NCBI GenBank assembly: GCA_009777575.1 | Contig: WRLO01000010.1 | Span: 1-61,496, forward strand | Length of the DNA: 61,496 nt | Reading direction: 5' to 3' | Origin: Candidatus Cloacimonadota bacterium | Lineage (GTDB): Bacteria; Cloacimonadota; Cloacimonadia; Cloacimonadales; WRIO01 | Shown: positions 25,944 to 52,010 of the stretch, piece by piece | Layout of the letters: the number at the start of each line of letters is the position of its first letter | Numbering within the stretch: position 1 is the stretch's first letter | The notes under the pieces: model-generated | The model's input: only the letters and a program-made list of their open reading frames with translations | Database searches by the model: none | What the model was told of the DNA's origin: nothing | Translations under genes and position numbers: made by a program

Positions 25944-26003
25944 TTTATTATCCTCAATTTTTATTGTATCTCATTTGAGTCCACTCCGAAAAGTATATTT
26001 TCA

Positions 26004-33794: not shown

Positions 33795-35387
33795 TTAAGA
33801 TTTTTTATTCCTCACATATTTTATTTGATTCTTTTCACAATATGATGCAGCTATCTCATTGTCATTACAAATAACAGTAATCTTTTTACAACCTCTGAAA
33901 ATTTCCCATCCAAAGTCAACAACACTTGGAGGGATTGAAATTTCCTTTAAGTTTATACAGCCTCTAAACACACTATCATCAATTTTGGTAACTCCATCGG
34001 GTATTTCAATTTTTTCGATTGATGTACAATTTGAAAAAGCACCTATATTAATTGTGTTTAAACTATCATGCAGTATGATTTTTTTGAGGCGTATAGCACC
34101 ATAAAAAGCATATCCATTGATATTTGTTACGCTGTCTGGAACTTCATATTCAACGAAGTCTTTATTTGATGGATAGATCAATAATGTTGATTTATTTTTA
34201 TTAAAAAGAATCCCGTCAGTTGACCTAAAGTACCTATTTTTAGGGTCAACGATGATATTATGTAGTTTACTACATCCTTTAAAAGGACCTATCCCAATTT
34301 CATTAACTTTTGAAGGAATATAAATTGTTTCTAATGAAGAACAATTTAAGAAAACATAATGAGTAATTTTTGTCAACTCCTCTGATAAAACAATGTCTTC
34401 AAGATTTATACATCCTGCAAAAGCTCTATTATTGAGCATTATTACATTCGGTGACAAGGTGATTCTTTTTAGGCTAATACAGTCTGATAATGCGTTTTCA
34501 CCCAATACAGCTAAATCTTCTGGAAGTTTTATATTGTCCAAACTACAGCAACTGTTAAAGACTCCGTTATTTATTTCGATTAAGTCGTCAGGCAGTGATA
34601 TGTTTTTTAATTGAGGGCAGTTTTCAAAAGCTCTTTCAGCTATATCAATTTCTTTTTCAATAACCAAATCAGTCAAATCGATACAATCTCTAAATGCGCT
34701 ATCTCCGATATAAAGGACGGTCTGAGGGATAAAAAGTTTTTTTAACCTACTGCAACCTCGAAAAGCTTCGTTTCCTATATATGTAACTGTTTTAGAAAAT
34801 ACGATAGATTCGAGCTTACGACAATGTTTAAATGCTGAATCAGCAATAGTTTTGATACTTTCATCTAATATGATTTCCTTACTTCCGTCTTTGCATTTTG
34901 TCAAAACACCATCTTTAACAATTAATTGTCTCATTGTTTCAATAGGCAGACTGGCTACAAGATTATCAATATATTTATCGTTTCCATCGGTTGAATAACC
35001 CTTTAAATGTTGCAAGTTTTCGAGTAACAATTTGAAACTATTGGGTATTTCTGCATCACTTTCAAGATATATTGGATAAATTCTTTTGTCGTATTTAAAT
35101 GCTGTGATAATCTCCATTCCCACATACTTTGACTGCATAGATGCAGTTGAGATAAATAGGATGAATGCTCCGCATTTTTCTATTCTTGTTCTGAGTTCTT
35201 CTCTAAAGTCAGAGCCTATCTCCATCGTATCATCATACCATATTCTGAATCTTTCACTATCGAGTTTATTCAAAATCTTATACACAATATCTGTATTCGT
35301 ATGAGAATAACTAACAAATAGAAACGGATTTGAGCCGTTGTAAACTTCAAAGTTTATATTCGGTTTTGTAAAATTGTTTTCCGACAT
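33795..35387 (-). CDS. TIR-domain protein fused to BspA-type leucine-rich repeats (LRR_5).
   Basis: N-terminal FLFVSYSHTNTD...RIWYDD...ILFIS...SKYVGMEI (TIR_2-like, including a candidate catalytic Glu). C-terminal repeats of ...IGDSAF..C..L..I.IP..V..IG..AF. Confidence 0.75.
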   Translation of the reverse strand: MSENNFTKPNINFEVYNGSNPFLFVSYSHTNTDIVYKILNKLDSERFRIWYDDTMEIGSDFREELRTRIEKCGAFILFISTASMQSKYVGMEIITAFKYDKRIYPIYLESDAEIPNSFKLLLENLQHLKGYSTDGNDKYIDNLVASLPIETMRQLIVKDGVLTKCKDGSKEIILDESIKTIADSAFKHCRKLESIVFSKTVTYIGNEAFRGCSRLKKLFIPQTVLYIGDSAFRDCIDLTDLVIEKEIDIAERAFENCPQLKNISLPDDLIEINNGVFNSCCSLDNIKLPEDLAVLGENALSDCISLKRITLSPNVIMLNNRAFAGCINLEDIVLSEELTKITHYVFLNCSSLETIYIPSKVNEIGIGPFKGCSKLHNIIVDPKNRYFRSTDGILFNKNKSTLLIYPSNKDFVEYEVPDSVTNINGYAFYGAIRLKKIILHDSLNTINIGAFSNCTSIEKIEIPDGVTKIDDSVFRGCINLKEISIPPSVVDFGWEIFRGCKKITVICNDNEIAASYCEKNQIKYVRNKKS

Positions 35388-35399
35388 ATTTCTAACTCC

Positions 35400-37862
35400 T
35401 TACACTTTTTTTTCTTTGCAGATTGTAAAAAATTCCTTATTCTCACCGATAGATTCTGAATCCATTGTTTCCCAAAGATCAAACGCTTGTTTAAAATATT
35501 CTATGGCTTGTTCTTGCTCTTGCATCAGTTTAGATAGAAGCCCCATATCATAGAATAATTTTGCGAGATCGTTTTTATATTTAATGACATCTGGAGTTTG
35601 GTTAAGTAATGTTTCTCGAAGTGATAAGGCTTTATGGCAGTATTCTAAGGCTTCAGGGAAGAGGCTGGTCTCTTTTAACAATATTGCGTAATTTGCATAG
35701 ATGTTGGATAAAAATTCCCGATATGCATCAGGATTTGTTGAAAACAATCGCTCAGTGATATTTATAGCTTTGTGGTAATATTTTTCTGTTTCTGGATAGT
35801 TTTTTAGAGCATAAAGAGATAAACTTATATAATAATATTGAAACCCCAGATTATGCTCAATAGTAAAATATACCTCTTTATCCAAGCTCTCAAGAATCTC
35901 AATTGCCATTATAAGATTATCAATAGATTCTGTATATTGATGTGTTTTTGACAGCATCTTTCCTAAATCACCGTATGCAGTTGCTAATCCTACTATATAT
36001 GTATCAAAGCTAAGATTGATTAATCGCTTACCTATTTTGATTGCACATCTAACCTGTTCTATACCTTCTGTATATTGTTTTAAAAGATAATATAGATGAC
36101 TTGATTCTCTATGAAGATCCATCAAATAAGGTTCAACAAAATTTGGATTAATATTTGCGCCTTTTTTTAGAAGTATTAAAGCTAGTTTGAAATATTCTTC
36201 AGATTCTACGAGTTGATATTTATTTAGATATAAACTTCCAAGTAAGCTATAACATTGTCCTAAGTCAATCTGGTAGAGGTATGTATCTTCATAATCTAAT
36301 GTTGAATAAATATTTTTTGCCAACATCATGAAGTGTTCTGCATCACTATATTGAGCAGTCTTGTAATTAGTAGGGTGACTGTATATCATGCCAATATTAC
36401 AATATGTGTCTGCTAACAATCTTAATCGATTAAATGATTTTTCGACTATTTCATCTTGCATTAAGGAAACATTTTTTAAAAATATATCCTTTGCGGCATC
36501 CATCTTTCCTTGAAAGAAATTAATCTCACCATAATTGTTAAGCATCTTACATTGTTTATAGTTATATATTTTTTGATTACTTTGATTTATTTTATCGCTA
36601 ATATCAATACTCTTTTTAAAAAAATATTCTGCATCATCAAATTTAAATTTATACCCTGAAATTAGACCTATATTTTGAAGGATTTCTGCAATTCTATATA
36701 GACATTCTTCTGTTTTGTCATAGTAAATCTCTGCCCATTTTAGGTAATCTTGTGCATGTTTTAAGGCTATATCAAAATATCTTTGCTCTATTAAATACTC
36801 CACAAACTTCGTCTGTGACTCTCTCTCCAGTCCAGCTTCTTTTTCGAGCTTAATAGCTTTTTCAAAGGAGTGTTCTATCTCTGTAAACCGATTCTCGTTT
36901 TGTGTATCAATTATAAGGACATCTACCCTTTGCATCCAGTCACCAACGAGGGCTTGGATTTTCTTTTTATGTTCTTCGAGGATTTCGAGTTCTCTTTTCT
37001 CTTCAAGTTCGAGTTCGTCAACTGAGAGTATTTGTTTTGCTCCCTCTATATCACCTTCTTCGAGGCATTGTCTGGCGGATATTTGTCTTGGTGAGATATA
37101 TCCTGTGCCGGATTTTTCCAAAAAAGAGGTTTCCATTTTGATGATGTCGAGTTGGAGGTTGTGAATGGCTTCGCTAGCTTTATTTTTTCTCCCGCTGATT
37201 CCTAAATATTCTGCTAGGAGGTCATCATCGTCAGGGTTTTTCTTGATGAGTGCTCTATGTGCCATGAATTCTTTTTCGATTTCTAAAAATTCGTTTTTTA
37301 ATAAGCTTAAATTTTTATTATTAAAGATGATAGGTATGTTCTCGAGGGTCATTAGTTCTTGTCCATCTAGTAGTAGTGATGTTTCGTTTACATCGACTTT
37401 TATATGTTCTAAACCGAGTGTTTTTAATTGCAAAATTAAATTAAGTTTCAGCGTGTCGAGATGGGTGTAACTGCTGTCGTAGTGACCGAGTTCATTTCTT
37501 AGTTTTTCCATGAAGTTGATAACTGTTTTATTTTGTTTTTTGTTATCAAGTTTTTTATAATAAGTGCAGATTTTAGGTGTTTTTTTATTGATGAAAGCAT
37601 TATAAGCTGCTTCAAATTCAGCTTTTGCTTTTTCTTGAGGTTCGTCATGGAAGATGATATAAAATAGTTCGCTATTTGCAGCTGCTTTGAGGTCTTCGGC
37701 GGGGTCATTTTCACCGCTTATATTCAGATAAAAGTATATTCCGAGCCTTTGATAATTATCGTTTAGGCTGTCAATAAAGGCACCGAATTCCTGAATGTCT
37801 TTTTCTAATTTGTCTAAAGATGAAGTGAGAAAAAGTTTAATTTTTTTCATTTGTTCTTTCAT
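35400..37862 (-). CDS. DUF4062-like N-terminal domain followed by a coiled-coil and an extensive TPR-repeat region.
   Basis: N-terminal KIKLFLTSSLDKLEKD... resembles DUF4062 and is paralogous to the next gene. The C-terminal 450 aa is packed with TPR-like A/Y/F-rich helical repeats. No P-loop. Confidence 0.55.
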   Translation of the reverse strand: MKEQMKKIKLFLTSSLDKLEKDIQEFGAFIDSLNDNYQRLGIYFYLNISGENDPAEDLKAAANSELFYIIFHDEPQEKAKAEFEAAYNAFINKKTPKICTYYKKLDNKKQNKTVINFMEKLRNELGHYDSSYTHLDTLKLNLILQLKTLGLEHIKVDVNETSLLLDGQELMTLENIPIIFNNKNLSLLKNEFLEIEKEFMAHRALIKKNPDDDDLLAEYLGISGRKNKASEAIHNLQLDIIKMETSFLEKSGTGYISPRQISARQCLEEGDIEGAKQILSVDELELEEKRELEILEEHKKKIQALVGDWMQRVDVLIIDTQNENRFTEIEHSFEKAIKLEKEAGLERESQTKFVEYLIEQRYFDIALKHAQDYLKWAEIYYDKTEECLYRIAEILQNIGLISGYKFKFDDAEYFFKKSIDISDKINQSNQKIYNYKQCKMLNNYGEINFFQGKMDAAKDIFLKNVSLMQDEIVEKSFNRLRLLADTYCNIGMIYSHPTNYKTAQYSDAEHFMMLAKNIYSTLDYEDTYLYQIDLGQCYSLLGSLYLNKYQLVESEEYFKLALILLKKGANINPNFVEPYLMDLHRESSHLYYLLKQYTEGIEQVRCAIKIGKRLINLSFDTYIVGLATAYGDLGKMLSKTHQYTESIDNLIMAIEILESLDKEVYFTIEHNLGFQYYYISLSLYALKNYPETEKYYHKAINITERLFSTNPDAYREFLSNIYANYAILLKETSLFPEALEYCHKALSLRETLLNQTPDVIKYKNDLAKLFYDMGLLSKLMQEQEQAIEYFKQAFDLWETMDSESIGENKEFFTICKEKKV

Positions 37863-38403
37863 TTCCTAATGTTATAATTTTATTAAGCCTTTGTTGTATT
37901 TCATTTGTAAGTTCATTTTTCAAGATTTCGAGTATCACGCTTAGTAATATTTCTTTGAAATCAGTTATTTCTGTGAACTTTAACTTTAGGGTATCTGAGG
38001 GGATGTTTTCAAAAAAAACATTGATAGTACTCTCGCTATCATCACAAATCTTGAAACCAGCTATAATTATAGGGAAACCTTCAACTTGCTGTTTTTTTAG
38101 ATTTTTAGCATATTCATATTCTTCAAAGGTATATTTTCCCATTTTTTTACCTATTAAGAGTAAAAAAATATTACAATCATCTATTTCTGTTAAAAATTGT
38201 TCTTGTTTTCTTCCATTTGTAATAGCTTTATCAGAAAATTCACAGATAAACATATTGATCATGATGTTATGGTCTATAACAACATTTTTTATTTGTCGGA
38301 TAAAATTTTTTAGTGATTGACGCTCATCTGCAAACTCCTCTATTGAGGAAGCGAGGAAGATTTTTATGTTTATCTTCGGTTTCGTGAAAATGTTTGCTGA
38401 CAT
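37837..38403 (-). CDS. Stand-alone DUF4062-like domain protein.
   Basis: KIFLASSIEEFADERQSLKNFI...CNIFLLLIGKKMGKYTFEEYEYA fits the DUF4062 pattern (FISSxFxDLxxER...CDIxxxIIGxRYG). 26-bp overlap with the downstream gene. Confidence 0.55.
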   Translation of the reverse strand: MSANIFTKPKINIKIFLASSIEEFADERQSLKNFIRQIKNVVIDHNIMINMFICEFSDKAITNGRKQEQFLTEIDDCNIFLLLIGKKMGKYTFEEYEYAKNLKKQQVEGFPIIIAGFKICDDSESTINVFFENIPSDTLKLKFTEITDFKEILLSVILEILKNELTNEIQQRLNKIITLGNERTNEKN

Positions 38404-38576
38404 ATTTATTAATCCTTTAGGAGAATAAACAACTTTTCGTTTATATTTTTCCCTTTATGCTTTTTATGTTGTTTGTAAAATGATAAATGTCATATGTAAA
38501 GGAAATAATTGGCATTAAAAGAAAAAATATTATGAAACCTTCGTGTAGATAGTTCATAAATTAATATTCTTCTTTA

Positions 38577-39374
38577 TTAAATATTATTCCGCCAGTTAGA
38601 GAATCTTTCCACTATGTCATCACGAGTAGGTAATAAATGGGCATGTTTGCTTCCACGAGTTATTAATTCATTTTCGCAGGCAACTCCTAATTCATTTTCA
38701 ATATATAGTTTAAAATCACTACAATTGATAAACTGACATGAAAAAATATCTGCAAAACAAGTTTTCTCTTCAATGTTATAGTGTAGAGCAATATGACTTT
38801 CTGCTATCATGGTCATTCCTGATATAAAAATAGGTTTCTTTACATTGTCTGTTATAACCATTGGACGCATTATTGGTGTCATACTTAGTTTTGGAGGCAA
38901 TTTATCTAATATAGCATAGATTCTAGAAAAATCTAAAGAGATTGTCTCAAGATTTTTTATTAAATAATGTGGACCAAAATCCTTATTTTCATCAATTATT
39001 GTTTTTGCTTTTTGTTCATTGATATTGACATTTCTATTGATGTTGTAAATTTTTTCTGTTCCATAAGGTAGTTCTTTTTTTAAAACCAGAACAAATTTAT
39101 CTGAATCAAAAAAGCTACTGTAAAGTAAATCTACGAAATAACACTCTCTTTCAGGAAAGGTATGAATTGTAAAATGACCGCCTTTAAGTAGTACGAAAGC
39201 ACTGATTCCGTCATCAGATTGCTCCTTACCATAAAAATATGGTATGATAATCGGTGGCATTATAGTTTTTAAAGATAAATAATCAGTTATCTTTGATATT
39301 GTGTTGTATAGTGCTCGCATATCATTTAGTTTTGAGTCTGAGCATTTATACGCGTCCAGCATTATATGTTCCAT
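38577..39374 (-). CDS. S-adenosylmethionine decarboxylase (SpeH class 1b)-like N-terminal domain with a ~160-aa C-terminal extension. The self-processing Ser is replaced (GGH instead of ESH).
   Basis: HIMLDAYKCSDSKLNDM...GISAFVLLKGGHFTIHTFPERECYFVDLLYSS aligns with SpeH HVISELWGCDFDKLNDM...[32 protein letters not shown]. Last gene of the TIR-led operon. Confidence 0.55.
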   Translation of the reverse strand: MEHIMLDAYKCSDSKLNDMRALYNTISKITDYLSLKTIMPPIIIPYFYGKEQSDDGISAFVLLKGGHFTIHTFPERECYFVDLLYSSFFDSDKFVLVLKKELPYGTEKIYNINRNVNINEQKAKTIIDENKDFGPHYLIKNLETISLDFSRIYAILDKLPPKLSMTPIMRPMVITDNVKKPIFISGMTMIAESHIALHYNIEEKTCFADIFSCQFINCSDFKLYIENELGVACENELITRGSKHAHLLPTRDDIVERFSNWRNNI

Positions 39375-39392
39375 CTATTTCTCCTATTTTAT

Positions 39393-40163
39393 TTATTCAA
39401 ATATATCTAATTTCAATTTTTGGTAGACATTAAGTTCAAAGATTTCGTTGTGATAATTCAAACCATCCAAAGAACAATATACTACTTTATACTTATTACT
39501 TTCATTTTCAATGGAATATAAGAACCAATAACGACCATCTACTTTACTCCTAATCAAAAAATATGATGTGTCGAATAATTCGTTTGTAGATTTTAACCGT
39601 AAATTAACTGAATTAAAATCCGAGTTATCCTCTTTTTTTTCCAAAATTTCAAGATCATAGAGAAATATTAAGGTGTTACATAACCCCAATAATCTTTGAA
39701 GTAAAAACTCCTCGTTATCCTCTGCACACCTTGCACTAGTAAGCCAAGTCTTTATTAAATCTTTAAATATAGGTATTTTCATTGTATTTTCACTACTTGA
39801 AATAATATTACTAAAATAAGATTCATTCCCTTGGATTGACACATCTTCCTGCATTTCTGTAAGTACATGATTAATTAAAGGTAATCCAAAGTTGTTTCCC
39901 TTGAAGATTGATTTCAGCAAATCAAAAACATTACTAGCTTTTGTTGAATTAAATAACCTTTCCTCTTCGCTTTTCTCTTTTTTATTGTGATAATACTTAA
40001 TGAAAGTTAAGATAAATGCTGTATTTAATAATCGATTTAAAACATCAATACCCTTTAAATCTCTACCTCTTAGGTTTGGCATGCCAAAAATCATCTCTTT
40101 TAAGGTTGGACATGTTATTTCATTATTAAGTTTTTGAGCAAACGATTTATAGCTTATTTCCAC
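39393..40163 (-). CDS. Hypothetical protein (256 aa).
   Basis: ORF in an operon. Start overlaps the stop of the upstream ParA-like gene. No recognisable motif. Confidence 0.45.
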   Translation of the reverse strand: MEISYKSFAQKLNNEITCPTLKEMIFGMPNLRGRDLKGIDVLNRLLNTAFILTFIKYYHNKKEKSEEERLFNSTKASNVFDLLKSIFKGNNFGLPLINHVLTEMQEDVSIQGNESYFSNIISSSENTMKIPIFKDLIKTWLTSARCAEDNEEFLLQRLLGLCNTLIFLYDLEILEKKEDNSDFNSVNLRLKSTNELFDTSYFLIRSKVDGRYWFLYSIENESNKYKVVYCSLDGLNYHNEIFELNVYQKLKLDIFE

Positions 40164-41056
40164 TATTCATCTCCCATCTCAGCAATTACTTCAGACAATT
40201 TCTGGTATCGATTTGCTGCTTCTTTTTCATCCTCTAAAAGAGTTATTTTGTCTATATGTTCTAATTTATATAGAACATCTTCACGCCATTTAAAACGTTC
40301 TACTTCATTTATACCAAGTTTATCGTAATCAATAAAACTTGAATTTATATTCTTTAACTCGAATATTTTTATTTTTTCCATGATATCTTCTAACGCTGCA
40401 TTGAGTTGTTTTTTTCCATCTATTTCTCTGTCAAGCCGAGGTACAACAGTTGGTAAAAGGATTATGTCTTTATCTTTGTTTATTCTTTTGTATCTGTCGA
40501 GGTATCGAAATGTGCCAGTTCTAAATTGAGTTGTAGCCCGTAGGCAACACACAACTATAGAAGCTGCATTAACGGAGAGCTTAGCGGAAAATTGATCACC
40601 AGCCGAACTATCAATTACTATGCCGGCAAAATGATTGTTTGTGCAAAAGCGTTCCAAATTTTTAAAATGTTGTTCCTGCATTCCGTCTTTGTCGTCAAAT
40701 CCGATTTTTTTGGGATTATCATCAACACCTAGAAATACAACTGACTCATGCTCAACACCCAAACAATTCCCGACGGGTACAAATTGTTTAAATAATCTAT
40801 GATCATGCAAACTCTGTTCTGTTGTTGACCACTGGATTGATCCTTTTAGAAAATCTTTTATGTCAAATTTATCTTTAAAACTCCATTCTTGCTTCATCAA
40901 GTATGTCATACCAGCACTATCAAGATCCATATCGAGTAACAAAATAGGAGTTTCTTTCGTTGCTCCAAGTGACGAAACCAAATATGGTAAAGTATTCTGG
41001 GTGGTAGAACTTCTTCCTGATCCCCCCTTAAATGAGTAAAAAGTGATTATTTTCAT
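40163..41056 (-). CDS. ParA/MinD-superfamily P-loop ATPase with a deviant Walker A (KGGSGRSST. The canonical Lys is replaced by Arg).
   Basis: KIITFYSFKGGSGRSSTTQNT compared with the canonical KGGVGKTT. Later VIDSSAG matches the ParA-type DxxP/G motif. Confidence 0.55.
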   Translation of the reverse strand: MKIITFYSFKGGSGRSSTTQNTLPYLVSSLGATKETPILLLDMDLDSAGMTYLMKQEWSFKDKFDIKDFLKGSIQWSTTEQSLHDHRLFKQFVPVGNCLGVEHESVVFLGVDDNPKKIGFDDKDGMQEQHFKNLERFCTNNHFAGIVIDSSAGDQFSAKLSVNAASIVVCCLRATTQFRTGTFRYLDRYKRINKDKDIILLPTVVPRLDREIDGKKQLNAALEDIMEKIKIFELKNINSSFIDYDKLGINEVERFKWREDVLYKLEHIDKITLLEDEKEAANRYQKLSEVIAEMGDE

Positions 41057-43134
41057 TCTTTTATCTCCTTATTCTTCTTCTCAATCAAAATAAAAATGTC
41101 TTTTAGAGATGTTCTTTTTTCTTCTGGTTTATCTATGTTAGCCACTATAAACTCAAAGAACTTTAGTACCGCTCCATCTATTTCTTTTTTGGACAATTCC
41201 TTAATAGCATCATCATCATCGAGTTTTTCTGATAAGTGTTTTACAAGCTGTAAAGGATAATGGTATCGACTTTCAAAATAATTATTTAATGAATTACACA
41301 ATAATTTTGAATTTTTATTTAGATTGTCAATATTTCTGTCAATAGGTGTATTTTTTACATAGAATCTGCTTACTTCATCTAAAGTGTCGCATATTGATTT
41401 TATTGCTTCGTTATGGATTTTTCGAATAATAGAATTTTCTATTATATATTCTTCTCTTACTTGAGCAATTTCATTTTTTTTCTCCTCTTCCAATCGTTTT
41501 AGAACTGGTTGTTGTGATTTTTTCACTTGCTCAGTAATGCTTTTTGTTAATTTTTTTTCTAGGGTTGGAGTTACACTCTCTTCAGCTTCCTTTTTGTCTT
41601 TGAAAGTGGTGGTATAGTCTCTTTCAAAATCATCGTAGTAGTTATAAAAATCTGCAATGGCTTCAATATATCTCGCTGTAGTTAGAAGATCATATTGACG
41701 ATTTTCCCATAACCATTCTTTAGAAAGCTTTGATTCCAATATCAGATCAAAAAGCGAACCTAAATCCTTTTGAGGAAATCGGTGTATATGTGATGCTACT
41801 AAGTTGTTTACTCGTGCCAACAAAGGCAATAAACTAGATGCTTGAATTGACGCTGCATTCAATTCCTTTCCAAATCTTTTTATTGAATCGTGTGGCTGGT
41901 CAAAATTGATAATATGTTTTTCTACAATACTATCTAAATCAAGTTCCTTTAGTTTATTATAGTATTGTTGTATTTTCAATAAACCATCAACGATTGTTTT
42001 TTTAACATCGTTTTCAAGATCAATCATCCATTTTTCTTTTTTATCTTCATCAATTATGTTCTCACGAACAGTGTAATTATTCTTATAGGTATAAAAAAGA
42101 ATGAAAATGACATACAAACTGTTAAACAATACCGAAGATCTGGATGATTTTTCAATTTCTGCTTCTTCAATATTATTAACATCATTGTTTATTTTATCTT
42201 CAAAAAAGTTTTTTTTGAGTTTATGTTCAAAATAATCCCAAGCTTTATCACCTATTTTAAAACAGATTTTCATAAATTGATTTTGCAATGGTTCATCGTA
42301 GTTACCCTCATTAATGAATTTTAACAATTCGACATCTTCTGTACTTCCTTCAGATTTGCTTAGGTTTAAACAATTGTCATCAAAATCTGCAAAAGCTTCT
42401 ACAACAGAATAGGTGAAAAATAGAGAAGGCTCTTCACAACCATTTGCATATCCATAACCAATATACTCTCTGGATATTTTATCTTTTTCATCGATTATCT
42501 CGTTACAATCAATGAAATTATTGATAAAAAATCTAATATTCTCTCTGATATTTTGAAATATCTTTTGTTCTTGTTCATGTGAAATATCAATTTTTTTATC
42601 CAATTGAGCCTTTCTTGCAGCAAGAAACATGGAGAATGCCCATGTCCGTGCTCCAATATAATCAACTTTTGTGTTATTTGCAGTTCTTCCTTTATGAAAA
42701 AACTTTTCATTTATTTCTTCATCTAAATATGGAGATAAATCATAACCATATTCCTCTATATAACTAATGGTTTTAGTAAGATAATTTTGAATTATTTCTT
42801 TGTCTTCTTTTGAATCAACAGCAATTTCAAAACTATTTATCAAACTCAACAAACCAACTATTCCATATAAATCGGTCATCAGACCAGGTGTCCTATCACG
42901 CTCATTGAGATAAAATCGACTACCATTATTTAATGTTTCATTTGAAGATTCTTTCAATCTTTTCATTAGAGCATCATAAATCAATTTCCCTGCTGATTGT
43001 TTTTTCTTAAATAGTCGCAGAGTTCCTATTTGTCCACTGTCTGCTGTAGTGTCTAATAATTCTTTTAACGCGTTTTCACGCTTAATTGTGTTTTCACTCA
43101 CAATATTTTCATTTTTTGTTTTGTTTTCAATCAT
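41053..43134 (-). CDS. Large hypothetical protein (693 aa), predominantly alpha-helical. No recognisable motif.
   Basis: ORF with a 4-bp overlap to the downstream ParA-like gene and a 22-bp gap to the upstream agmatine-deiminase-family gene. Confidence 0.45.
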   Translation of the reverse strand: MIENKTKNENIVSENTIKRENALKELLDTTADSGQIGTLRLFKKKQSAGKLIYDALMKRLKESSNETLNNGSRFYLNERDRTPGLMTDLYGIVGLLSLINSFEIAVDSKEDKEIIQNYLTKTISYIEEYGYDLSPYLDEEINEKFFHKGRTANNTKVDYIGARTWAFSMFLAARKAQLDKKIDISHEQEQKIFQNIRENIRFFINNFIDCNEIIDEKDKISREYIGYGYANGCEEPSLFFTYSVVEAFADFDDNCLNLSKSEGSTEDVELLKFINEGNYDEPLQNQFMKICFKIGDKAWDYFEHKLKKNFFEDKINNDVNNIEEAEIEKSSRSSVLFNSLYVIFILFYTYKNNYTVRENIIDEDKKEKWMIDLENDVKKTIVDGLLKIQQYYNKLKELDLDSIVEKHIINFDQPHDSIKRFGKELNAASIQASSLLPLLARVNNLVASHIHRFPQKDLGSLFDLILESKLSKEWLWENRQYDLLTTARYIEAIADFYNYYDDFERDYTTTFKDKKEAEESVTPTLEKKLTKSITEQVKKSQQPVLKRLEEEKKNEIAQVREEYIIENSIIRKIHNEAIKSICDTLDEVSRFYVKNTPIDRNIDNLNKNSKLLCNSLNNYFESRYHYPLQLVKHLSEKLDDDDAIKELSKKEIDGAVLKFFEFIVANIDKPEEKRTSLKDIFILIEKKNKEIKE

Positions 43135-43155
43135 TTTACTCCTCCTTATTAGGAT

Positions 43156-44163
43156 TTAAATATTTCGACTGATACAATGAATTCCCCCGCCACCAAGAAC
43201 AACTTCTCTTGCATTGAATGGGACTATTTTTCTATTAGGAAATGTTTGCTGGAAAACTTCCAATGCTTTTTTATCTTGCTCAACTCCAAATTGTGGAGCT
43301 ATTATGCCGCCGTTCACGAACATAAAATTGATATAGCTTGCCTGAATAGAATCACCAACCAACCTTTTTTTGCTATCTTCTCTAATCTCAATTCCTTCTC
43401 TATCATCTTGTGATGCAAAAAAAATGTCTGGAGTCGGGATTTTCACTATTTTATATGGAATGCCATTTATATTTTCAGATTTTTCTAATGTTTTGAAAGC
43501 TTCTCGTACTACATGATATTGTGGATTGTTTTTGTCATCTGTCCAAGAAAGAATTACTGTGTTTGAATCAGCAAAAGTACATATATTGTCTATATGTCCG
43601 CCTGTTTCATCAAAAACAAGACCCCTATTTATCCAGATTATCTGTTTTATTTTTAAGACTTGTTTTAGTTCTTTCTCAATATCTTCTATAGAAATAGAAT
43701 TTCGTTTAATTACACTTTCTTTTACAAGTAATAATGTTCCATTTCCATCAGAAACAATATTTCCACCCTCTAACACTAAACTGCTTTCTTCAATTTTTAC
43801 CTTAAGGATTTGAGTTATTTGCTGAGCAACCGTGCTGTCTTTAGTTACATCACCTATTAACCCTCCATAAGCATCATATTGGAAAGCAGTAAATATGTCA
43901 TCGAAAATTGGTATAGCTCCTGTATCTCTAACCCAAATATCGTCATAATCAATTTTTTTAAAATGTATCTCATAATTGAGTTTATTCATTTTACTTGGAA
44001 CATTGTTTTCATTATATCCCAATATTACAGGTTCAAACTCTGATACAAACTCGGCCAAGTTTTCGACTATTCTTTTAATTGGGTCAGCATTCATCCGCCA
44101 AACATCACTTCTTTCAGGATATAGCAAAATAGTATATTGGTGTTTTTCAAATTCAGACTTCAT
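43156..44163 (-). CDS. Agmatine deiminase / porphyromonas-type peptidyl-arginine deiminase family enzyme (guanidino-group modifying).
   Basis: WVRDTGAIPIF. C-terminal SYINFMFVNGGIIAPQFG...VLGGGGIHCISRN is almost superimposable on the AguA C-terminus, including the catalytic Cys. Confidence 0.75.
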   Translation of the reverse strand: MKSEFEKHQYTILLYPERSDVWRMNADPIKRIVENLAEFVSEFEPVILGYNENNVPSKMNKLNYEIHFKKIDYDDIWVRDTGAIPIFDDIFTAFQYDAYGGLIGDVTKDSTVAQQITQILKVKIEESSLVLEGGNIVSDGNGTLLLVKESVIKRNSISIEDIEKELKQVLKIKQIIWINRGLVFDETGGHIDNICTFADSNTVILSWTDDKNNPQYHVVREAFKTLEKSENINGIPYKIVKIPTPDIFFASQDDREGIEIREDSKKRLVGDSIQASYINFMFVNGGIIAPQFGVEQDKKALEVFQQTFPNRKIVPFNAREVVLGGGGIHCISRNI

Positions 44164-45280
44164 TTTCTGCCTCTTTATACAAATTTATTAATTTGGGAAA
44201 CTTTTTAATAATCTGATTTTGGGGTATGGGAATGAATGCTTTATGATAAATTTTCCCGAAAGACTTATGATTTATTAAAAAACTAAATCCCAATCTTTTC
44301 ATTTGATTTTCAACTTCAGGTGAAAAAACATTTATACACCATTCTTTAAAAAAAACTCCTTTTTCTGCGTATTCTTCAATTTGCCCATAAAAAGACTCCG
44401 TCAGTTTCATGTAATTATCCAAATTACGATAATCGGGTAAAATAGAGATAGCGAGTATATATCCATAATAAAAATCTGGAAAAGCAATTAGTTCTATTTT
44501 TTCATAATCAATATCTTTTTCCATCAATAATCCTTCTTTTGCTTTTTCAAAAACATCTTTTTTCAGAGCAACGATCTGCCAGTCACCAACTATCTCATTT
44601 TCAAAATTTAACATAAAACGAGATGTTTCACTAGAATCTTGAATAAATTGTTGCCACTGACTAGCTGTTCCTTCAACTTCATCTGGTATTTCATTAAAGT
44701 TTATATAATCATTTTTAACAAGTTGCGAGGCTATTTTCTCAGCAGTATATCCTAATTTAAGTAATTCATTGTACTTCGCCATACGTGTGATAGATATGTT
44801 TGAATCATAGTCTTCTGGTTCTTCTCTTTTTTTGTGCACTATTTTTTTTTCTTTTGATTCATTAGATTCAGTAGATATAGGTATCTCCTGACTAGCAACT
44901 TTTTTATTTACTAATGACACTAACTCACTTAGTTTACATATTGTAGTGGCATCTATAAACTGCTTTCGAGCTAACCAATAACGCATCTCATCATCTAAAG
45001 CAATTTCTTCAAGCTTATATGGTATGATGATTTTCTTGTTTGTATAAGCCTCGTCGACCTCAGTTCTAATATGATCTGATTTTAGAGAGTTTTTTGTCAG
45101 TAACAAAATGAAAACCTTACAGTTTCTAATTGCTTTAGGTATTTCTTCAGCGTATGATTTTCCACCTTCAACATCACGATAACTTATCCAACATTTGATG
45201 TCATTTAACTCTAATTCTTTCATGGTTTTTTCAGCTGTTTCTTTTTCATCACTCGCATATGATATGAACACATCATGCAT
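44153..45280 (-). CDS. TIR-domain protein with a ~240-aa C-terminal domain of unknown function (possibly GNAT-like).
   Basis: N-terminal DVFISYASDEKETAE...IKCWISYRDVEGGKSYAEEI...VFILLLTKNSLKSDHIRTEVDEA (TIR with a candidate catalytic Glu). First gene of a six-gene operon. Confidence 0.7.
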   Translation of the reverse strand: MHDVFISYASDEKETAEKTMKELELNDIKCWISYRDVEGGKSYAEEIPKAIRNCKVFILLLTKNSLKSDHIRTEVDEAYTNKKIIIPYKLEEIALDDEMRYWLARKQFIDATTICKLSELVSLVNKKVASQEIPISTESNESKEKKIVHKKREEPEDYDSNISITRMAKYNELLKLGYTAEKIASQLVKNDYINFNEIPDEVEGTASQWQQFIQDSSETSRFMLNFENEIVGDWQIVALKKDVFEKAKEGLLMEKDIDYEKIELIAFPDFYYGYILAISILPDYRNLDNYMKLTESFYGQIEEYAEKGVFFKEWCINVFSPEVENQMKRLGFSFLINHKSFGKIYHKAFIPIPQNQIIKKFPKLINLYKEAENEV

Positions 45281-45461
45281 AATTTTCCTCCTAATTTATT
45301 AATTTATGGACTGTTTCTTGTGTCTCCATGGCAATGCGTTTTCTTTGTTTATAGTTTTCACATCTTTACAGATATCAACTGTTATTTTAATAATAGTATT
45401 ATTTCCCACTAAAGTTAAAAATATTCCTGATGTAAATCTTAATTTTTTTTTTCTCATAAAC

Positions 45462-46664: not shown

Positions 46665-49600
46665 TTATTTATCATACTTATTTATTCTTTCATTCCATTT
46701 TTCTTCTGTCCAAAATATTGGAATATCAAGAGGGATATTATTTTTAAAAGGGTTTTTATTTTTATTGAGTGTGGTAAGACCTAAATTTTTGATAAAACCA
46801 TTGATACCAAGATTATATTTATCATCAAGACCATATTGATAGTAGTAATTTGCAAAACCTCTTCCATACTCTGATCTATCAAAACATATCCATGATGTTA
46901 ACGCTCTCTCTATCCTTGATTTAATCATCTCTTTATCCGCCGTAATCGAATGCTTTTTAGTTTTATTAAATTTCTTTAATAACCCTTTAATCTTACTATC
47001 TGTATCTCCAACATAGTATAATAAGTATTGTATTTCAGACCAGCGAGCAAGGCCTTCAAGAACCATACTTCTTTCACTCTCATTTCCATACATAACAATA
47101 AGAGTTTCATAGTTCCAATTTTTGTTTGGATTTGTATACTGCCATATATGAACTAATTCATGAGCGGTTGTTTTTAGCATACTGATCAATGGAGAACCAT
47201 TTTCTATCCATATTTCGCGTATATCCCCATATTGCCTTGCAAAACCCAGAAAACGAGCATCAAAACCTGGTGTTGGTCTAAATTCAGTTCCCCATGCTTT
47301 TGCTATTTCATTTGCATTTTTCACAAAAAGCTCAATCTTAACATCAAAGTTTACACCGAGATGTTTTTTAAGTCTATCTCTTATTTCTTGGTATAAAGTA
47401 ACAAAATCATTTTTTTCTTTTATAACTGATTTAGAGCATTCAGAACATCTATCGCGACCATCTGGTAACTCTTCATATTCTTCCTCAGGGTTTATTATAC
47501 AGCCGTCAAAATCACATATTCTAGTGCCTGTTTTATCGGTTTTTTTCTTGGTTCGTTTTCGCCACTTATCTCTTGTCCAAAAGCGTTTTTTCTTACGATC
47601 ATCATATTGGTCGTCAAAGGGTGTTCCACCGCCTCCTATTACTTCAGTTAATTCGTCATCATCAAACTGATTGAAAAAATCACTTATCCCTACATTGTGG
47701 ACATCTTCAAGTCCATATTGCTTGTAACATTCAGCAAAAGACATTCCTGCTTCTTGGGTGTTGTTTAGTAGGACTAAAATCATTCTCTTTGCATAAGCTA
47801 CTTCATTTAAGTGTAAAAGATACTGGATCTTTGTCCACTCACCCATGTTTATTTCATCATCGTTTTTTTCTTCAGAGTTAGAATTCATCTTTCTTTTTTC
47901 TTTTTGCCAGATATTCGTCAACTCATAAACAATATTTATCAAAGTAGTTAATTTGGGTGCACCATTTTCTACCCAGATACGATATTCCCCTTCTTTGATT
48001 TCTTCAAGATATGTAGTTGGTCTTTCGTCATATTTTTTTGTAGGTTTGAATATCAGATTGTGCATTTTAGCGATTTTCTTTGCATTAGTCATAAAGACAT
48101 CGATTTTTATTCTCTCTGAGTTTTCACTCAATTTATCAAGATTTACATTAAAAAAGAAAATCATATCCCGAAAAGCTTTGAGATATATTCTCTTTAGTTG
48201 CTCAGAATTGGTAACAGCTGAATTGTGGCATATAGTACAACTGATTCTTCCATCATCTAAAACCCTTTTGGCAACTTCAGATAATTTTATCGCACAGAAA
48301 TCACAATACACTGAATCTATATCGTCAAAATAATTAATGTTTATATCTAAAGAAGAGTCTTTTTTCGATTTTCTAGCATTATGTAATGCTGTTTTCAGGT
48401 AATCATTTTTTTTCAAAAAGCCAAGAGTCGATTCTGCATCAAAAACTTTCAATGTTTCATCATCAGAAGCTAATCCAAAATTTAAATAATTTACATATTC
48501 TCTTTTAGAATTTATCTCTTTTTCAGAAATAGATTCTTTGGTTGCATGATCTTCTTCATCAGATTCTCTTATGCGACTAGTCTTTGTAAATTCGTCTTCT
48601 TCATTCTCTTTGCTTAGCATTTCTTCTTCAATATCTACTTCATCATCAGATTCTTCAGATTCAAAATCTATCGTATCTTTATTTTCTGAATTATTCATCA
48701 TGTTTCCTATAGTAATATTGCCGGTCTGTTCAGCAGGTTTTACTTTGTCTTTATCGACAGACATTTCTATATTCCAGGATAGGTAGTCAGCAATTATTTC
48801 AAGGAGTCCTTTTAGATTATTTGAAATAGCATCAAGCAAACCTAAATCAATTTCTGAGTCCTCTATAATATATATAGCATTCTCATCGAAACCATCTAGA
48901 TTCATGGAATGTAAAAGCATAGAAATATTAGTTTCATGTTTATTACTACCAATCATAATTGATATATAGTGGTAATTTTCTGGGAATACAGAAACAATCA
49001 ATTCATTGAGTAATACAGCTAAGGTAAACAATGACCTCGAGTCTTTGTTTTCTTTTAGTTTTAGACACATTACATTCTTTTTCAAATAGGTTCGATATCT
49101 AACATTATCTGGTAATACTGGCATATTAGGAAAAATATCTAAGTTATTCCTCGATTTTTGTTCAAAAAATCCTTTTGTTTCTACTTTCACTTCATCACAG
49201 ACTCCTCTGGTAATATCTATACCTTTGGATCTTGCCATATAAGATTGATCTATTTCAAAATTTGAGAGACAATATTCTCGTATTTGTCGATAATAATAAA
49301 TATCATTACTAAAGCTACTTGTAGCATCTGTAATTATATTTTTCTCTGTTACAGTATGTATTCTGTAATACTGTCCATCGTAAGAGAAATACTGCTTAGG
49401 TAAATATTTTTGAGAAACTTGATTTCTTAGCAAAGTTATTGGATGTTCTTTTTTATTCGGTAGAATAATCTCCGTGAAAAGGAATTTGTTAGCATATTTC
49501 CCGAGTTCAGTATCACCGTTTAGTTTTATGTATGTAGTATTTACAACTTTTGTTTCAGCATCTGGAAGATCAATGACATCGTATTTAGACTCAATCGCAA

Positions 49601-52010
49601 ATTCTATATCTTCATTTAATAGGAAATATTTTTTAATCAAAGAAACAAGTTTTAGATAAACATCTTTATTAGAGATACACGCAGGTACAATCTGTCTCTC
49701 TTCTTCTGAGAACCCTGTAATCTCAATGCTTTCTTCGGTAAATTTTTCTTGTAAATCACACTCTTTTATTCCTTCATCAAGCATCCTTAATAATAATTCA
49801 ACTATGATGTTTCTTTCTGTTCTACGATAATTTGAAGTTATAAAAGGAATTGTATCAGGAAGTTTGGCAAAAATATGAGGATTATCCGCAATATAATCTC
49901 TTAAGAGATAGTTATCACTAACAGTATTAATAAAGCAAATGTTTTGAGCTCTAGTACCGAACAACCTTGATGTTTCAAAGATATTATTTATTTCATCTTC
50001 AACTGTGATAAAGGCAGCATCTGAGATACCTAAATCCCAGAGATTCTTTTTGACATCTATTTTTTTATCGAGTTCTGTATCATTTACTCCAAGATAACCA
50101 CTAAGTATTTTCTTATTCTTATTCTTTATGTCAATAGCAGGGAAATTTGTGCTACTTAACCAAATAGAAATAGGAACATCATTTTTTAAAGCTATTAGCG
50201 ACAATAAAACATCCATACTTAATTCCTTGGGGACATGCTTTAGATCATCAATTGAATGTTGAATTGGTTTATCTCTAGCCGCATCCCAGTTCATGATATA
50301 GCATATTGCTTGGGAGGAGGTATCATAGTTAACTTCATTTATATAGTCTTTTTTTTCTTTCAATATCATTCTCAAAACATCATTGAGATCCTTACTTTCT
50401 CTATCACAAGCACAATATATCACATTTTCTCTATCTAAATGATCAACGATAATGGTAAGACCTATTTGTCCTGTTGATATCATATGCGAAGGCTCGATAA
50501 GCAAAACAATACTGACTTGTTTAAGAAATTCTTTTTTATTAGCTAGTATTTGTCTGTTGTATATATCAGTAAAGCTAAGAATACCAATGTCATACTCAGG
50601 ATCTCTTTTGGTAATTTTACTACTTTTCCAAAGAGTTTTTGTGCCAGAAAATTTTTCAATTGCATTATCTATCCATACTTTCACATCGTCGGCTGTATTG
50701 TCACGTCCAGCTATTATTAAAACCTTATTATATGCCATTAATTCAAGCATAATAGGTATGACTATATAGTTATCTAGATCTTTGTAAAAAGGAGAATTTA
50801 TAAGAACTGATTCTCTTTTCTTAATCATATCAATTGTTATTTGAACAAGCTCAGTATTTATTTGTTCACCTTTTTCTTTAAGTTTGGTAAAAAATTTGCC
50901 TATAGCTTGTTCTGTTTTACACTCACTATTTTCGAGTTTTTCTAAATGCTCAAAAATAGAGGTGCTAAAAGAGCTTGATATAACTGTCTCCGCAAGAACT
51001 CGATTGGGGTCGTTAATCCCTTTTTTCAATATAGGATAAATTTTCCGAAAATTATAGATAATCTGAGATTTAGAATCTTCACTTAAATCTATATAAGTAT
51101 CTTCTTCTTCAACTCCTATGGGATCATGGTGAGGTTCTCCTTTATTTCCTGATAGAAAATTCAACAACTCTCCTATAATCAGTAAACCAAACACAGGGAA
51201 TATGCTTACATTGAGTATATAAGACAATGGTCGTATCTTAGTATAAACCATAATAGCAATAGATATACCGATAGCCCACCAAAAGACTTTTTTTAGCAAA
51301 TCACTCGCATGCTCATATTTTTTTGCTAATACAAATGAATCTTCTGTTCCGTCATATTCATAGAAACCGAAAAGGTTTATAGGATGGTAAGCACTATTAA
51401 TCCACATAGAATCAAGCTTTGGTAAATTTTTCATGAAAATCCGCTTGAACCCTATAAAGAAAAGTATGATAAAAATATTAATAGTATAATATCCCCACTT
51501 CTCTAAATCCATTACCTGTAAAAATTTCAAGTGACCAAGTAACCATGTATAAAAAGTAGATATTGTCTCTTGAGTCATCATTGGTATGTATTCTGAATAA
51601 AGTCTTGAAATCAAACTATACCACCCTGATAGCTTTATAATCAACCAATTGTATAATTTAATGTATGCAAAGACTATTAACAAAAAGTAAAGTAATGCTG
51701 TAAATGGCATTATCGATTGTTGATACCGTTGAGACTTTGAAAGATTGAGTTTTTCACTCGTTATATCTAACAAACACCATAGAAAAATTCCACAGGCAAC
51801 AAGGTTCATTGCATATTGAGGAATATATCGATTTATGATATAAAAACCTATTAAAATCAAAATAAAATATAAAAATTTTATTTTTCTCAAAATGTATGCA
51901 AAGAGCTTAATAATCTTAACTATGAGCCATAAAAAAACTAATGATATGGCTAAAAATAAGAGATTGTTTGCAGTTACAAACTGTAATATATCATTCATTA
52001 TTACCCCCAA
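46665..52010 (-). CDS. Giant (1781 aa) multi-domain protein: ~9-TM N-terminus, ~800-aa cytoplasmic region, acidic linker, then two tandem Zn-ribbon + zincin-like modules (the second with an intact HELVHIWQY).
   Basis: Hydrophobic helices in aa 1-300. DE-rich stretch (ESEESDDEVDIEEEML...). Duplicated CDFC...CTIC / CDFDGC...CSEC ribbons each followed by a W(V/I)ENG(A/S)P module and YELTNIWQ (degenerate) / AHELVHIWQY (HExxH). Confidence 0.6.
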   Translation of the reverse strand: MGVIMNDILQFVTANNLLFLAISLVFLWLIVKIIKLFAYILRKIKFLYFILILIGFYIINRYIPQYAMNLVACGIFLWCLLDITSEKLNLSKSQRYQQSIMPFTALLYFLLIVFAYIKLYNWLIIKLSGWYSLISRLYSEYIPMMTQETISTFYTWLLGHLKFLQVMDLEKWGYYTINIFIILFFIGFKRIFMKNLPKLDSMWINSAYHPINLFGFYEYDGTEDSFVLAKKYEHASDLLKKVFWWAIGISIAIMVYTKIRPLSYILNVSIFPVFGLLIIGELLNFLSGNKGEPHHDPIGVEEEDTYIDLSEDSKSQIIYNFRKIYPILKKGINDPNRVLAETVISSSFSTSIFEHLEKLENSECKTEQAIGKFFTKLKEKGEQINTELVQITIDMIKKRESVLINSPFYKDLDNYIVIPIMLELMAYNKVLIIAGRDNTADDVKVWIDNAIEKFSGTKTLWKSSKITKRDPEYDIGILSFTDIYNRQILANKKEFLKQVSIVLLIEPSHMISTGQIGLTIIVDHLDRENVIYCACDRESKDLNDVLRMILKEKKDYINEVNYDTSSQAICYIMNWDAARDKPIQHSIDDLKHVPKELSMDVLLSLIALKNDVPISIWLSSTNFPAIDIKNKNKKILSGYLGVNDTELDKKIDVKKNLWDLGISDAAFITVEDEINNIFETSRLFGTRAQNICFINTVSDNYLLRDYIADNPHIFAKLPDTIPFITSNYRRTERNIIVELLLRMLDEGIKECDLQEKFTEESIEITGFSEEERQIVPACISNKDVYLKLVSLIKKYFLLNEDIEFAIESKYDVIDLPDAETKVVNTTYIKLNGDTELGKYANKFLFTEIILPNKKEHPITLLRNQVSQKYLPKQYFSYDGQYYRIHTVTEKNIITDATSSFSNDIYYYRQIREYCLSNFEIDQSYMARSKGIDITRGVCDEVKVETKGFFEQKSRNNLDIFPNMPVLPDNVRYRTYLKKNVMCLKLKENKDSRSLFTLAVLLNELIVSVFPENYHYISIMIGSNKHETNISMLLHSMNLDGFDENAIYIIEDSEIDLGLLDAISNNLKGLLEIIADYLSWNIEMSVDKDKVKPAEQTGNITIGNMMNNSENKDTIDFESEESDDEVDIEEEMLSKENEEDEFTKTSRIRESDEEDHATKESISEKEINSKREYVNYLNFGLASDDETLKVFDAESTLGFLKKNDYLKTALHNARKSKKDSSLDININYFDDIDSVYCDFCAIKLSEVAKRVLDDGRISCTICHNSAVTNSEQLKRIYLKAFRDMIFFFNVNLDKLSENSERIKIDVFMTNAKKIAKMHNLIFKPTKKYDERPTTYLEEIKEGEYRIWVENGAPKLTTLINIVYELTNIWQKEKRKMNSNSEEKNDDEINMGEWTKIQYLLHLNEVAYAKRMILVLLNNTQEAGMSFAECYKQYGLEDVHNVGISDFFNQFDDDELTEVIGGGGTPFDDQYDDRKKKRFWTRDKWRKRTKKKTDKTGTRICDFDGCIINPEEEYEELPDGRDRCSECSKSVIKEKNDFVTLYQEIRDRLKKHLGVNFDVKIELFVKNANEIAKAWGTEFRPTPGFDARFLGFARQYGDIREIWIENGSPLISMLKTTAHELVHIWQYTNPNKNWNYETLIVMYGNESERSMVLEGLARWSEIQYLLYYVGDTDSKIKGLLKKFNKTKKHSITADKEMIKSRIERALTSWICFDRSEYGRGFANYYYQYGLDDKYNLGINGFIKNLGLTTLNKNKNPFKNNIPLDIPIFWTEEKWNERINKYDK

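Follow-up and report, generated by a model that had tools for sequence, protein, structure and literature searches.

The window analysed here is a 61,496-nucleotide stretch of a Candidatus Cloacimonadota genome assembled from a JGI metagenome (contig WRLO01000010.1, positions 1 to 61,496), AT-rich with 30% guanine plus cytosine (GC), and our subject is an operon of six minus-strand open reading frames (ORFs) that covers 6.7 kb of it. From gene 1 to gene 6 the ORF listing reads as follows:

44153..45280, minus strand: gene 1, 375 amino acids (aa), TIR_2 domain plus a C-terminal effector-associated domain of ~215 aa; exchangeable, outside the core
43156..44163, minus strand: gene 2, 335 aa, agmatine-deiminase-like guanidino hydrolase; core
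41053..43134, minus strand: gene 3, 693 aa, (alpha/alpha)6 toroid plus coiled coil; core
40163..41056, minus strand: gene 4, 297 aa, ParA/MinD-like ATPase whose P-loop Lys is replaced by Arg; core
39393..40163, minus strand: gene 5, 256 aa, helical bundle plus small beta domain; core
38577..39374, minus strand: gene 6, 265 aa, tandem fusion of two domains of S-adenosylmethionine decarboxylase (AdoMetDC) fold (SpeD-SpeD); core

These coordinates agree with the original prediction, made from the sequence alone, that the six genes overlap or are separated by short gaps only. Its view of the six as one operon led by the TIR gene stands in part: five of the genes recur together across phyla, but the TIR gene does not belong to this core and is one of several exchangeable partners of the five-gene unit.

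The neighbourhoods that were read comprise more than 30 loci, 24 of which belong to GTDB species genomes; the others lie on metagenome contigs and further JGI contigs. Every locus found with a gene 3 homologue has the core in one constant order as far as the contig reaches (AguA-like enzyme, gene 3, ATPase, gene 5, SpeD-SpeD fusion), and this in three phyla, Bacillota, Fibrobacterota (Chitinispirillia) and Cloacimonadota. The hosts are mainly gut and rumen Clostridia, joined by Chitinispirillia and the Cloacimonetes of the window. Chance adjacency can be rejected for these five genes because the same order is found in more than 30 loci. A survey of the neighbourhoods of the 693-aa and 256-aa proteins, proposed with the original prediction, shows that both families co-occur with a TIR protein in one type of locus and with a CorA-like protein in another. 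Type A comprises 13 of the 24 GTDB loci; here gene 5 encodes 730-804 aa and the effector is a CorA-like protein of ~500-535 aa directly downstream of the core. The other 11 loci are of type B, with a gene 5 product of ~230-245 aa and a TIR protein of ~580-625 aa directly upstream of the core. In these type-B loci with short gene 5, synteny stops after the AdoMetDC-fold gene, which is also where the cassette ends in the window.

No family recurs in the flanks of the cassette. Among 121 flanking genes in a Pfam scan, most of them housekeeping genes, any one family was found at most three times (3/121). Such heterogeneous flanks indicate that the cassette is autonomous and mobile and has been inserted at many sites; the five-gene core is a self-contained, horizontally mobile unit. 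The most divergent type-B locus (L040:7600-12319) is followed by a ClpB-like AAA+ protein (PADLOC PDC-M37B/DolB, E 1e-28) and then by a 632-aa protein; the ClpB-like neighbour is probably an adjacent but separate defence candidate.

Gene 6 matches AdoMet_dc (PF02675, E 1.4e-25) over two separate stretches, and both of its halves match one and the same single-domain phage speH, which confirms an internal duplication. The N-terminal domain carries the motif KGGHFTIHTFPE (39150-39185), with Gly-Gly at the Glu-Ser processing position. Aligned to the AdoMetDC of T. maritima (1tlu), its Gly65-Gly66 fall on Glu62-Ser63 and its Ser86 (DLLYSS, 39114-39131) on Cys83, and it retains Ser58, His71 and Glu75 at the 1tlu positions 55, 68 and 72. 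In the C-terminal half, Ser185, Gly186, Glu192-Ser193, His198, Glu202 and Cys213 fall on Ser55, Gly56, Glu62-Ser63, His68, Glu72 and Cys83, and the processing site is intact (minus strand: AESHIALH, aa 191-198, 38781-38804; IFSC, 38736-38747). An alignment with 25 homologues shows the (E/Q)-S-H, the His and the FSC Cys of the C-terminal domain to be invariant and the Gly-Gly of the N-terminal domain to be nearly so. Conserved Gly, Ser, His and Cys are the criterion for functional SpeD homologues (PMC10407285 Fig. S5); the C-terminal domain has all four, and the N-terminal domain is without the Gly, Ser and Cys.

The earlier claim that the SpeH-like protein is without the processing serine therefore holds for the N-terminal motif but fails for the protein, in which the C-terminal domain has Glu192-Ser193. 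A dead pseudo-enzyme, unable to form the pyruvoyl cofactor, is rejected, as gene 6 is a tandem fusion with one intact processing site whose C-terminal domain carries Glu-Ser, His and Cys. The sequence predicts instead a self-cleaving, live pyruvoyl decarboxylase with one composite active site; cleavage between Glu192 and Ser193 would yield chains of 22.2 kDa and 8.5 kDa (computed masses). In class 1b AdoMetDC the active sites are situated where the two subunits of the dimer meet. The class 2 enzyme of eukaryotes has its two halves fused into a pseudo-dimer that has just one processing site and in which the His and Ser of the other half act across the interface. The conservation pattern of both gene 6 domains fits such a single composite site. 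Gene 6 is like the eukaryotic enzyme in uniting two AdoMetDC-fold halves with one processing site in a single chain, but the order of its domains is reversed, sequence similarity is not detectable, and its substrate is probably not S-adenosylmethionine (AdoMet or SAM).

Fusions of SpeD to SpeD are known, with a second domain that is an ornithine decarboxylase (ODC) or degenerate (PMC10407285). These fusions and the SpeD-derived arginine decarboxylases (ADC) and ODCs described by Li, Liang, Phillips and Michael (JBC 2023, PMC10407285) share with gene 6 the class 1b fold and the tandem of ~265-320 aa with one degenerate domain, and some SpeD-type ADCs also share the linkage to agmatine deiminase. 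In the described fusions, however, the active AdoMetDC domain comes first and the degenerate or ODC domain second, the reverse of the degenerate N-terminal and intact C-terminal domains of gene 6, and they adjoin speE in polyamine operons, whereas the cassette has neither speE nor aguB and its partners are conflict-type genes. No speE was found at any locus examined. Gene 6 scores 63.9 bits against TIGR03330 (SpeH/SpeD equivalog), below the cutoff of 75.65. The equivalent of Glu72, which binds the ribose of AdoMet, varies across the family (E/Q/S/K/D/A in the 25-sequence alignment) and is unconserved in either domain; the window copy itself has Glu at this position in both.

The assignment of gene 2 to the agmatine deiminase family is borne out by the profile PAD_porph/agmatine deiminase (PF04371, E 7e-89, full length) and by the alignment of aa 1-333 to the agmatine iminohydrolase (AIH) of A. 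thaliana (3h7c, E 7.7e-65). The catalytic motifs WVRDTG (43918-43935), GGHIDN (43585-43602) and GGGGIHC (43174-43194), all on the minus strand, are represented in 27 homologues by the invariant WxRD, GGHID and GGGG(I)HC, so that the catalytic Asp, His-x-Asp and Cys are present. Full-length homology and the Asp/His/Asp/Cys motifs are thus shared with AguA/AIH (A. thaliana 3h7c, E. faecalis 2jer). Gene 2 differs from these enzymes in its score, which at 302 bits lies below the NCBIfam cutoff of TIGR03380 AguA (381.8) and below a second cutoff (483), in the lack of an N-carbamoylputrescine amidohydrolase or AgDI-pathway partner, and in being embedded in a non-metabolic cassette.

Genes 3 and 5, called unrecognisable in the original prediction, indeed match no Pfam, NCBIfam or PADLOC family. 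The AlphaFold model of gene 3 (pLDDT 83, pTM 0.73) shows an (alpha/alpha)6 toroid at about aa 40-480 and a long coiled coil at aa 483-690. It has 64 homologues (28-44% identity; family of ~650 aa), and its features include conserved acidic and aromatic residues and a near-invariant ANGCxEPSLFFTYSVxEAFADFDD (ANGCEEPS at 42424-42447). Identification as a particular glycosidase, epimerase or cyclase was rejected, as only the fold is shared and identity is at most 13%. The same applies to a thioester domain of the complement/alpha2-macroglobulin kind, where the likeness is again in fold only (identity <=13%) and the CGEQ motif is absent. The toroid does hold a near-invariant Cys in a C-x-E-P context, in a fold like that of the complement thioester domains; since there is no Gln, a classical thioester is excluded, but the Cys might be reactive toward an amine product.

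Gene 4 has the KGGSGRS P-loop at 41009-41029, the Walker A' motif DMDLDSAG at 40910-40933 and the Walker B-like VIDSSAG at 40598-40618 (all minus strand). The signature Lys10 is kept, Arg15 replaces the P-loop Lys, and KGG(A/S)GRS is invariant in 26 homologues. The replacement of Lys by Arg in this ParA-like protein was thus correctly noticed; this variant class is already catalogued as NF047398 (KGGVGR-motif variant AAA ATPase), which gene 4 matches below cutoff (E 1.9e-13, 51 bits, cutoff 90). With the ParA/MinD deviant-Walker-A ATPases and NF047398 it shares the signature Lys, the Walker A' and Walker B-like motifs and a length of ~300 aa, and with NF047398 the Arg; it differs from ParA/MinD in that no ParB-like or centromere partner is found at the cassette, and from NF047398 in its low score. 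At one type-A contig locus (L041:3565-4464) the KGGxGR ATPase is split into ORFs of 209 aa and 88 aa, by a frameshift, a sequencing error or decay of this copy.

Gene 5 is modelled (pLDDT 81, pTM 0.81) as a helical bundle (aa 1-170) followed by a beta domain (aa 172-242), and contains the conserved motif LDLxIYVLTExQxDV...SYF (LTEMQEDV at 39840-39863). Only weak HEPN-like matches were obtained, and the HEPN RNase motif Rx4-6H is absent. It is homologous to the N-terminal ~250 aa of the 730-804-aa proteins in type-A loci, which bear an extra C-terminal extension of ~480 aa that is absent from the window copy. These homologues were found with a profile; a word-based search with gene 5 alone recovered only itself.

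The effector position is filled in three ways: by a CorA-like protein together with the gene 5 extension, by a TIR protein of ~600 aa, or by the 375-aa TIR protein of the window. The type-A downstream protein consists of a soluble part of ~400 aa and two C-terminal transmembrane (TM) helices, and 10 of 12 of these 2TM proteins match PADLOC models of CRISPR-type CorA (PDLC01175 10/12, PDLC01043 4/12; best E 6.7e-12). The CorA-like gene and the gene 5 extension are always jointly present or jointly absent, and in type B both are replaced by a TIR protein with a C-terminal region of ~450 aa. Profile searches with the gene 5 extension, the CorA-like N-terminal domain and the C-terminal domain of the type-B TIR against PDB sequences gave no match. 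There are no cas genes at any locus, and neither Cas10 nor another nucleotidyl-transferase.

CorA effectors of CRISPR systems are gated by SAM-AMP, which is made by Cas10 (PMC10600005), and for CorA immunity a second enzyme is required that breaks this messenger down; one class of such enzymes acts on its methionine moiety (PMC10600005, PMC12255297). The type III CRISPR CorA/SAM-AMP module of Bacteroides fragilis and Clostridium botulinum (same sources) shares with type A the soluble N-terminal domain followed by two C-terminal TM helices. An enzyme partner is obligatory in this module, and the type-A effector likewise has an enzyme next to it, of a fold that works on SAM-like molecules at their amino-acid end. 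In contrast to this module, the cassette is without Cas10, crRNA or any other CRISPR gene and without NrN or SAM lyase; its partners are the AdoMetDC-fold decarboxylase and the agmatine-deiminase-like hydrolase, and the window has a TIR protein in place of a CorA-like gene. One might conceive of the cassette as centred on SAM, with the AdoMetDC-fold enzyme decarboxylating the aminocarboxypropyl group of SAM or of a SAM-containing messenger and so making or trimming a signal. This would parallel SAM-AMP lyase and NrN, the obligatory partners of CRISPR-associated CorA (PMC10600005, PMC12255297), and would suit the homology of the type-A effector to the SAM-AMP-gated CorA, the AdoMetDC fold of gene 6 and the Glu at the Glu72 position in both domains of the window copy. 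We consider it quite unlikely, as the agmatine-deiminase-like enzyme, which is strictly co-conserved, would then have no guanidino substrate, the residue equivalent to Glu72 is variable across the family, no Cas10 or other nucleotidyl-transferase is there to form a SAM conjugate, and gene 6 falls below the TIGR03330 cutoff.

The TIR_2 domain of gene 1 (E 3.7e-22, aa 4-112) keeps the conserved Glu, as had been noted before: Glu74 (IRTEVDEA, 45047-45070) aligns with the invariant Glu of 12 related type-B TIRs and of a neighbouring protein with TIR and leucine-rich repeats (TIR-LRR), in an alignment that contains no reference NADase. By this catalytic-type Glu gene 1 would be a putative TIR effector of the NAD-cleaving type. 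Its C-terminal domain (aa 160-375, ~215 aa, 44156-44803) is unrelated to the C-terminal region of the type-B TIRs and belongs to a family of 562 clusters at E<1e-3, which in other proteins either occurs by itself or is joined to domains of conflict type, among them TIR, SIR2, HD, HEPN, kinase, protease and Schlafen. It can be called GNAT-like only tentatively. As a single sequence it weakly matches Naa20 (E 0.002) over beta4-alpha3-beta5, but its motif A reads RNLDNY where R/Q-x-x-G-x-G/A is expected; a profile of the family gets no better than E 0.7 against archaeal NATs, and Pfam GNAT matches in the family stem from an extra, true GNAT domain.

The core of the window is nearest to type A (e.g. 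L010, 42-66% identity), and nonetheless its gene 5 stops at the domain boundary. Neither a CorA-like gene nor a remnant of one occurs anywhere in the window, and the stop of the TIR gene overlaps the start of the AguA-like gene by 11 nt. For these three reasons the window variant is a clean effector swap, with a type-A-like core, a short gene 5 and a TIR in the type-B position. A decaying type-A locus was rejected, as there are no pseudogene remnants. Alternatively, the TIR gene may be an independent defence gene that happens to abut the cassette, which would make the core copy effector-less and possibly a decaying derivative of type A. The combination of TIR and C-terminal domain is indeed found in none of the other core loci, the family is large and in unrelated contexts is met alone, beside a true GNAT or in one chain with it, and the window is full of unrelated defence genes. 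This is nevertheless unlikely in our view, given the 11-nt overlap, the position shared with the type-B TIR gene, the loss of the CorA-like gene and gene 5 extension that mirrors type B, the clean end of gene 5 and the five core ORFs, which are intact and have their catalytic residues.

Further evidence against independence comes from the closest homologue of gene 1 (45% identical), behind which lies an AguA N-terminal remnant. The gene overlaps by 4 nt with a next ORF of 39 aa, the last 19 residues of which match the N-terminus of the AguA family (13.8 bits, a score reached by 0/2000 shuffles); the AguA N-terminus is also the best BLAST match of this ORF among 1326 ORFs. The TIR/AguA junction is thus probably not unique to the window, the second example being a remnant and not intact. 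At this locus (L045:2744-2998, and also in L046 and L047) the AguA-like remnant is followed by a stop, GC-rich palindromic repeats and the end of the contig, and three independent assemblies break there, which suggests that a repeat or mobile element was inserted into the cassette. In two other loci (L048:370-2083 and L049:9001-10699) a gene with TIR and the window-type C-terminal domain is followed by an overlapping true GNAT gene among housekeeping genes, and six proteins of ~555-807 aa fuse TIR, the window-type C-terminal domain and a true GNAT. This TIR-GNAT pair looks like a separate, undescribed candidate system.

The statement that the combination is not a described system is upheld for the resources searched. 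PADLOC v2 has no match for genes 2, 3, 5 and 6 and for gene 4 only a weak match to the candidate PDC-M28B, limited to the P-loop; NCBIfam 2026 holds no system name that covers the core genes; and full-text literature searches with the components and defence terms found nothing relevant. Matches of gene 1 to known TIR systems are weak (ThsB models at best E 3e-5; Retron_TIR 33.8 bits vs 600; ThcB4 22 bits vs 220), and Pfam finds no ThsA, CD-NTase, cyclase or reverse transcriptase in the operon. Thoeris, the TIR effectors of CBASS and Pycsar, and TIR-SAVED share with the cassette a TIR with catalytic-type Glu and a non-catalytic C-terminal domain, encoded together with possible small-molecule enzymes, and a TIR that is interchangeable with a membrane effector. 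The cassette differs from them in having no ThsA/ThsB pair, CD-NTase, cyclase, SAVED, SLOG or STING, and in matching PADLOC and NCBIfam weakly and at the level of the TIR domain only; moreover, their signals are nucleotides, whereas the candidate chemistry of the cassette is that of amino acids and polyamines. The component families and enzymes and the logic of swappable, ligand-gated effectors are known, and it is the composition of the core and the implied chemistry that are new.

We interpret the window, tentatively and as a possibility that still falls short of being probable, as one variant of an undescribed five-gene cassette coupled to exchangeable effectors, which would act as a small-molecule-run conflict system of the abortive-infection type and probably against phages. 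A signalling or conflict system had been suggested before, and it remains the best reading, now backed by the swapping of TIR and CRISPR-type CorA effectors. Gene 6 would cleave itself at Glu192-Ser193 to form its pyruvoyl cofactor and would work as a single-site pseudo-dimer, class 2-like but in reversed domain order. It would then make agmatine by decarboxylating L-arginine, a reaction known from other neofunctionalised SpeD homologues, and the AguA-like enzyme would convert agmatine to N-carbamoylputrescine. An arginine substrate is plausible because SpeD-derived ADCs exist and cluster with AguA (PMC10407285) and because the Glu72 equivalent is unconserved. N-carbamoylputrescine or a further conjugate might be the ligand whose level the TIR or CorA-like effector senses through its non-catalytic domain; alternatively, the enzymes of the cassette may process a related ligand that controls the ligand-gated effector. 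The KGGxGR ATPase, gene 3 and gene 5 would be the sensor or scaffold that links enzyme output to infection. Firing of the effector, which in the window would mean cleavage of NAD+, would stop the infected cell, and the ligand could either activate the effector or restrain it. The more specific proposal that the messenger arises from amino-acid and polyamine chemistry and not from nucleotides, with N-carbamoylputrescine or a conjugate gating TIR NADases or CorA-type effectors as the first such immune-type pathway, is in itself doubtful.

The two enzymes could also be taken for part of a metabolic or biosynthetic cassette that makes N-carbamoylputrescine, putrescine or some specialised product derived from arginine, in which the ATPase, the toroid and gene 5 would serve assembly or positioning. 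The pair would cover two successive steps of a known route to putrescine, AguA is found clustered with SpeD-type ADCs in polyamine operons (PMC10407285), the (alpha/alpha)6 toroid fold is common among enzymes, and most loci lie among housekeeping genes. Yet among the families shown, none of AguB, SpeB, SpeE, putrescine carbamoyltransferase, carbamate kinase or an antiporter is recurrent in or beside the cassettes, which in every case come with an effector, TIR or CRISPR-type CorA; the distribution is sporadic with varying insertion sites, and both enzymes are divergent and below equivalog cutoffs. A metabolic role is thus rather improbable.

Several observations also weigh against the conflict system that we prefer. 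No copy of the cassette was found in viral contigs, phage records or plasmids, and according to the Pfam scan of the 121 flanking genes most homologous loci lie among housekeeping genes and not in defence islands. None of the core proteins shows a likeness to known signal synthases or sensors. A sensor domain shared by the three effector types was rejected, since hhalign detects no homology among their non-catalytic domains. Full-length homologues of gene 1 exist apart from the cassette; two of them form a tight pair with a true GNAT gene, and six members of the family are fused to one. Arginine is suggested as the gene 6 substrate by the partner enzyme and the loss of one AdoMet-contacting residue only, and since neither the AguA-like nor the SpeD-like protein reaches the NCBIfam equivalog cutoffs, each could act on a substrate other than the canonical one.

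If the proposed conflict system is real, immune signalling would reach beyond nucleotide-derived messengers to one derived from arginine or polyamines, and CorA-family effectors would be general ligand-gated executioners with a role outside CRISPR. It would likewise provide a physiological context for the newly discovered neofunctionalised decarboxylases of AdoMetDC fold and a naturally occurring counterpart, with the domains in reverse order, to the single-chain AdoMetDC of eukaryotes. Polyamine enzymes are encoded by phages (PMC9992855), and in the light of this the system would suggest a new axis of metabolic conflict between phage and host. The cassette is compact (6.7 kb), has clear catalytic residues and comes with three natural effector variants, which makes the hypothesis directly testable.

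Two intergenic gaps delimit the cassette in the window:

45281..45461: 181 bp 5' of the TIR gene, likely the promoter region (putative, from ORF spacing)
38404..38576: 173 bp between the cassette and a DUF4062/TPR pair

The gap to the neighbouring cluster had been given as 172 bp; it measures 173 bp, and the upstream gap 181 bp. A consensus scan found a single sigma-70-like match (9/12) in the upstream gap, on the minus strand at 45418-45390, in a window without real enrichment overall (47 promoter-like sites vs 38 expected). The terminator scan revealed no terminator-like site in the gap at 38404..38576; in DNA as AT-rich as this, both scans are uninformative.

According to profile searches the cassette lies in a defence island with restriction-modification, GmrSD-HNH, HerA-like, Schlafen, SPFH, TIR-LRR and DUF4062-TPR genes and a giant Tubulin_2 gene. 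The island extends over ~50 kb and adjoins housekeeping genes (lysine 5,6-aminomutase, MCP, TldD/PmbA). Two stretches (9957-15437, plus strand; 19489-28259, minus strand) encode an EcoRI-type adenine methylase, GmrSD_N-HNH, an Eco57I-type methylase, SPFH/Band7-SHOCT, a SprT-like protein, an 891-aa HerA/DUF87 ATPase and a Schlafen AlbA_2/HATPase_c_4/HTH protein. Downstream of the cassette (33795-38403, minus strand), the gene of a 188-aa DUF4062 protein overlaps that of an 820-aa TPR protein and is followed by a 530-aa TIR-LRR protein of BspA type; DUF4062 and TIR-LRR are two more TIR-like or TIR modules, so that three TIR-class genes lie within 12 kb. On the other side, a 1159-aa protein with an N-terminal Tubulin_2 domain (PF13809, E 1e-49; 53721-57200, minus strand) is co-directional with three large Pfam-less proteins of 647 aa (57214-59157), 551 aa (52013-53668) and 1781 aa (46665-52010), all on the minus strand. 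Directly upstream of the cassette, this run may constitute a further conflict system of several genes that is as yet uncharacterised. A fusion of M48 metallopeptidase and TerB at the window edge (60053-61306, minus strand) points in the same direction as the tubulin-like cluster.

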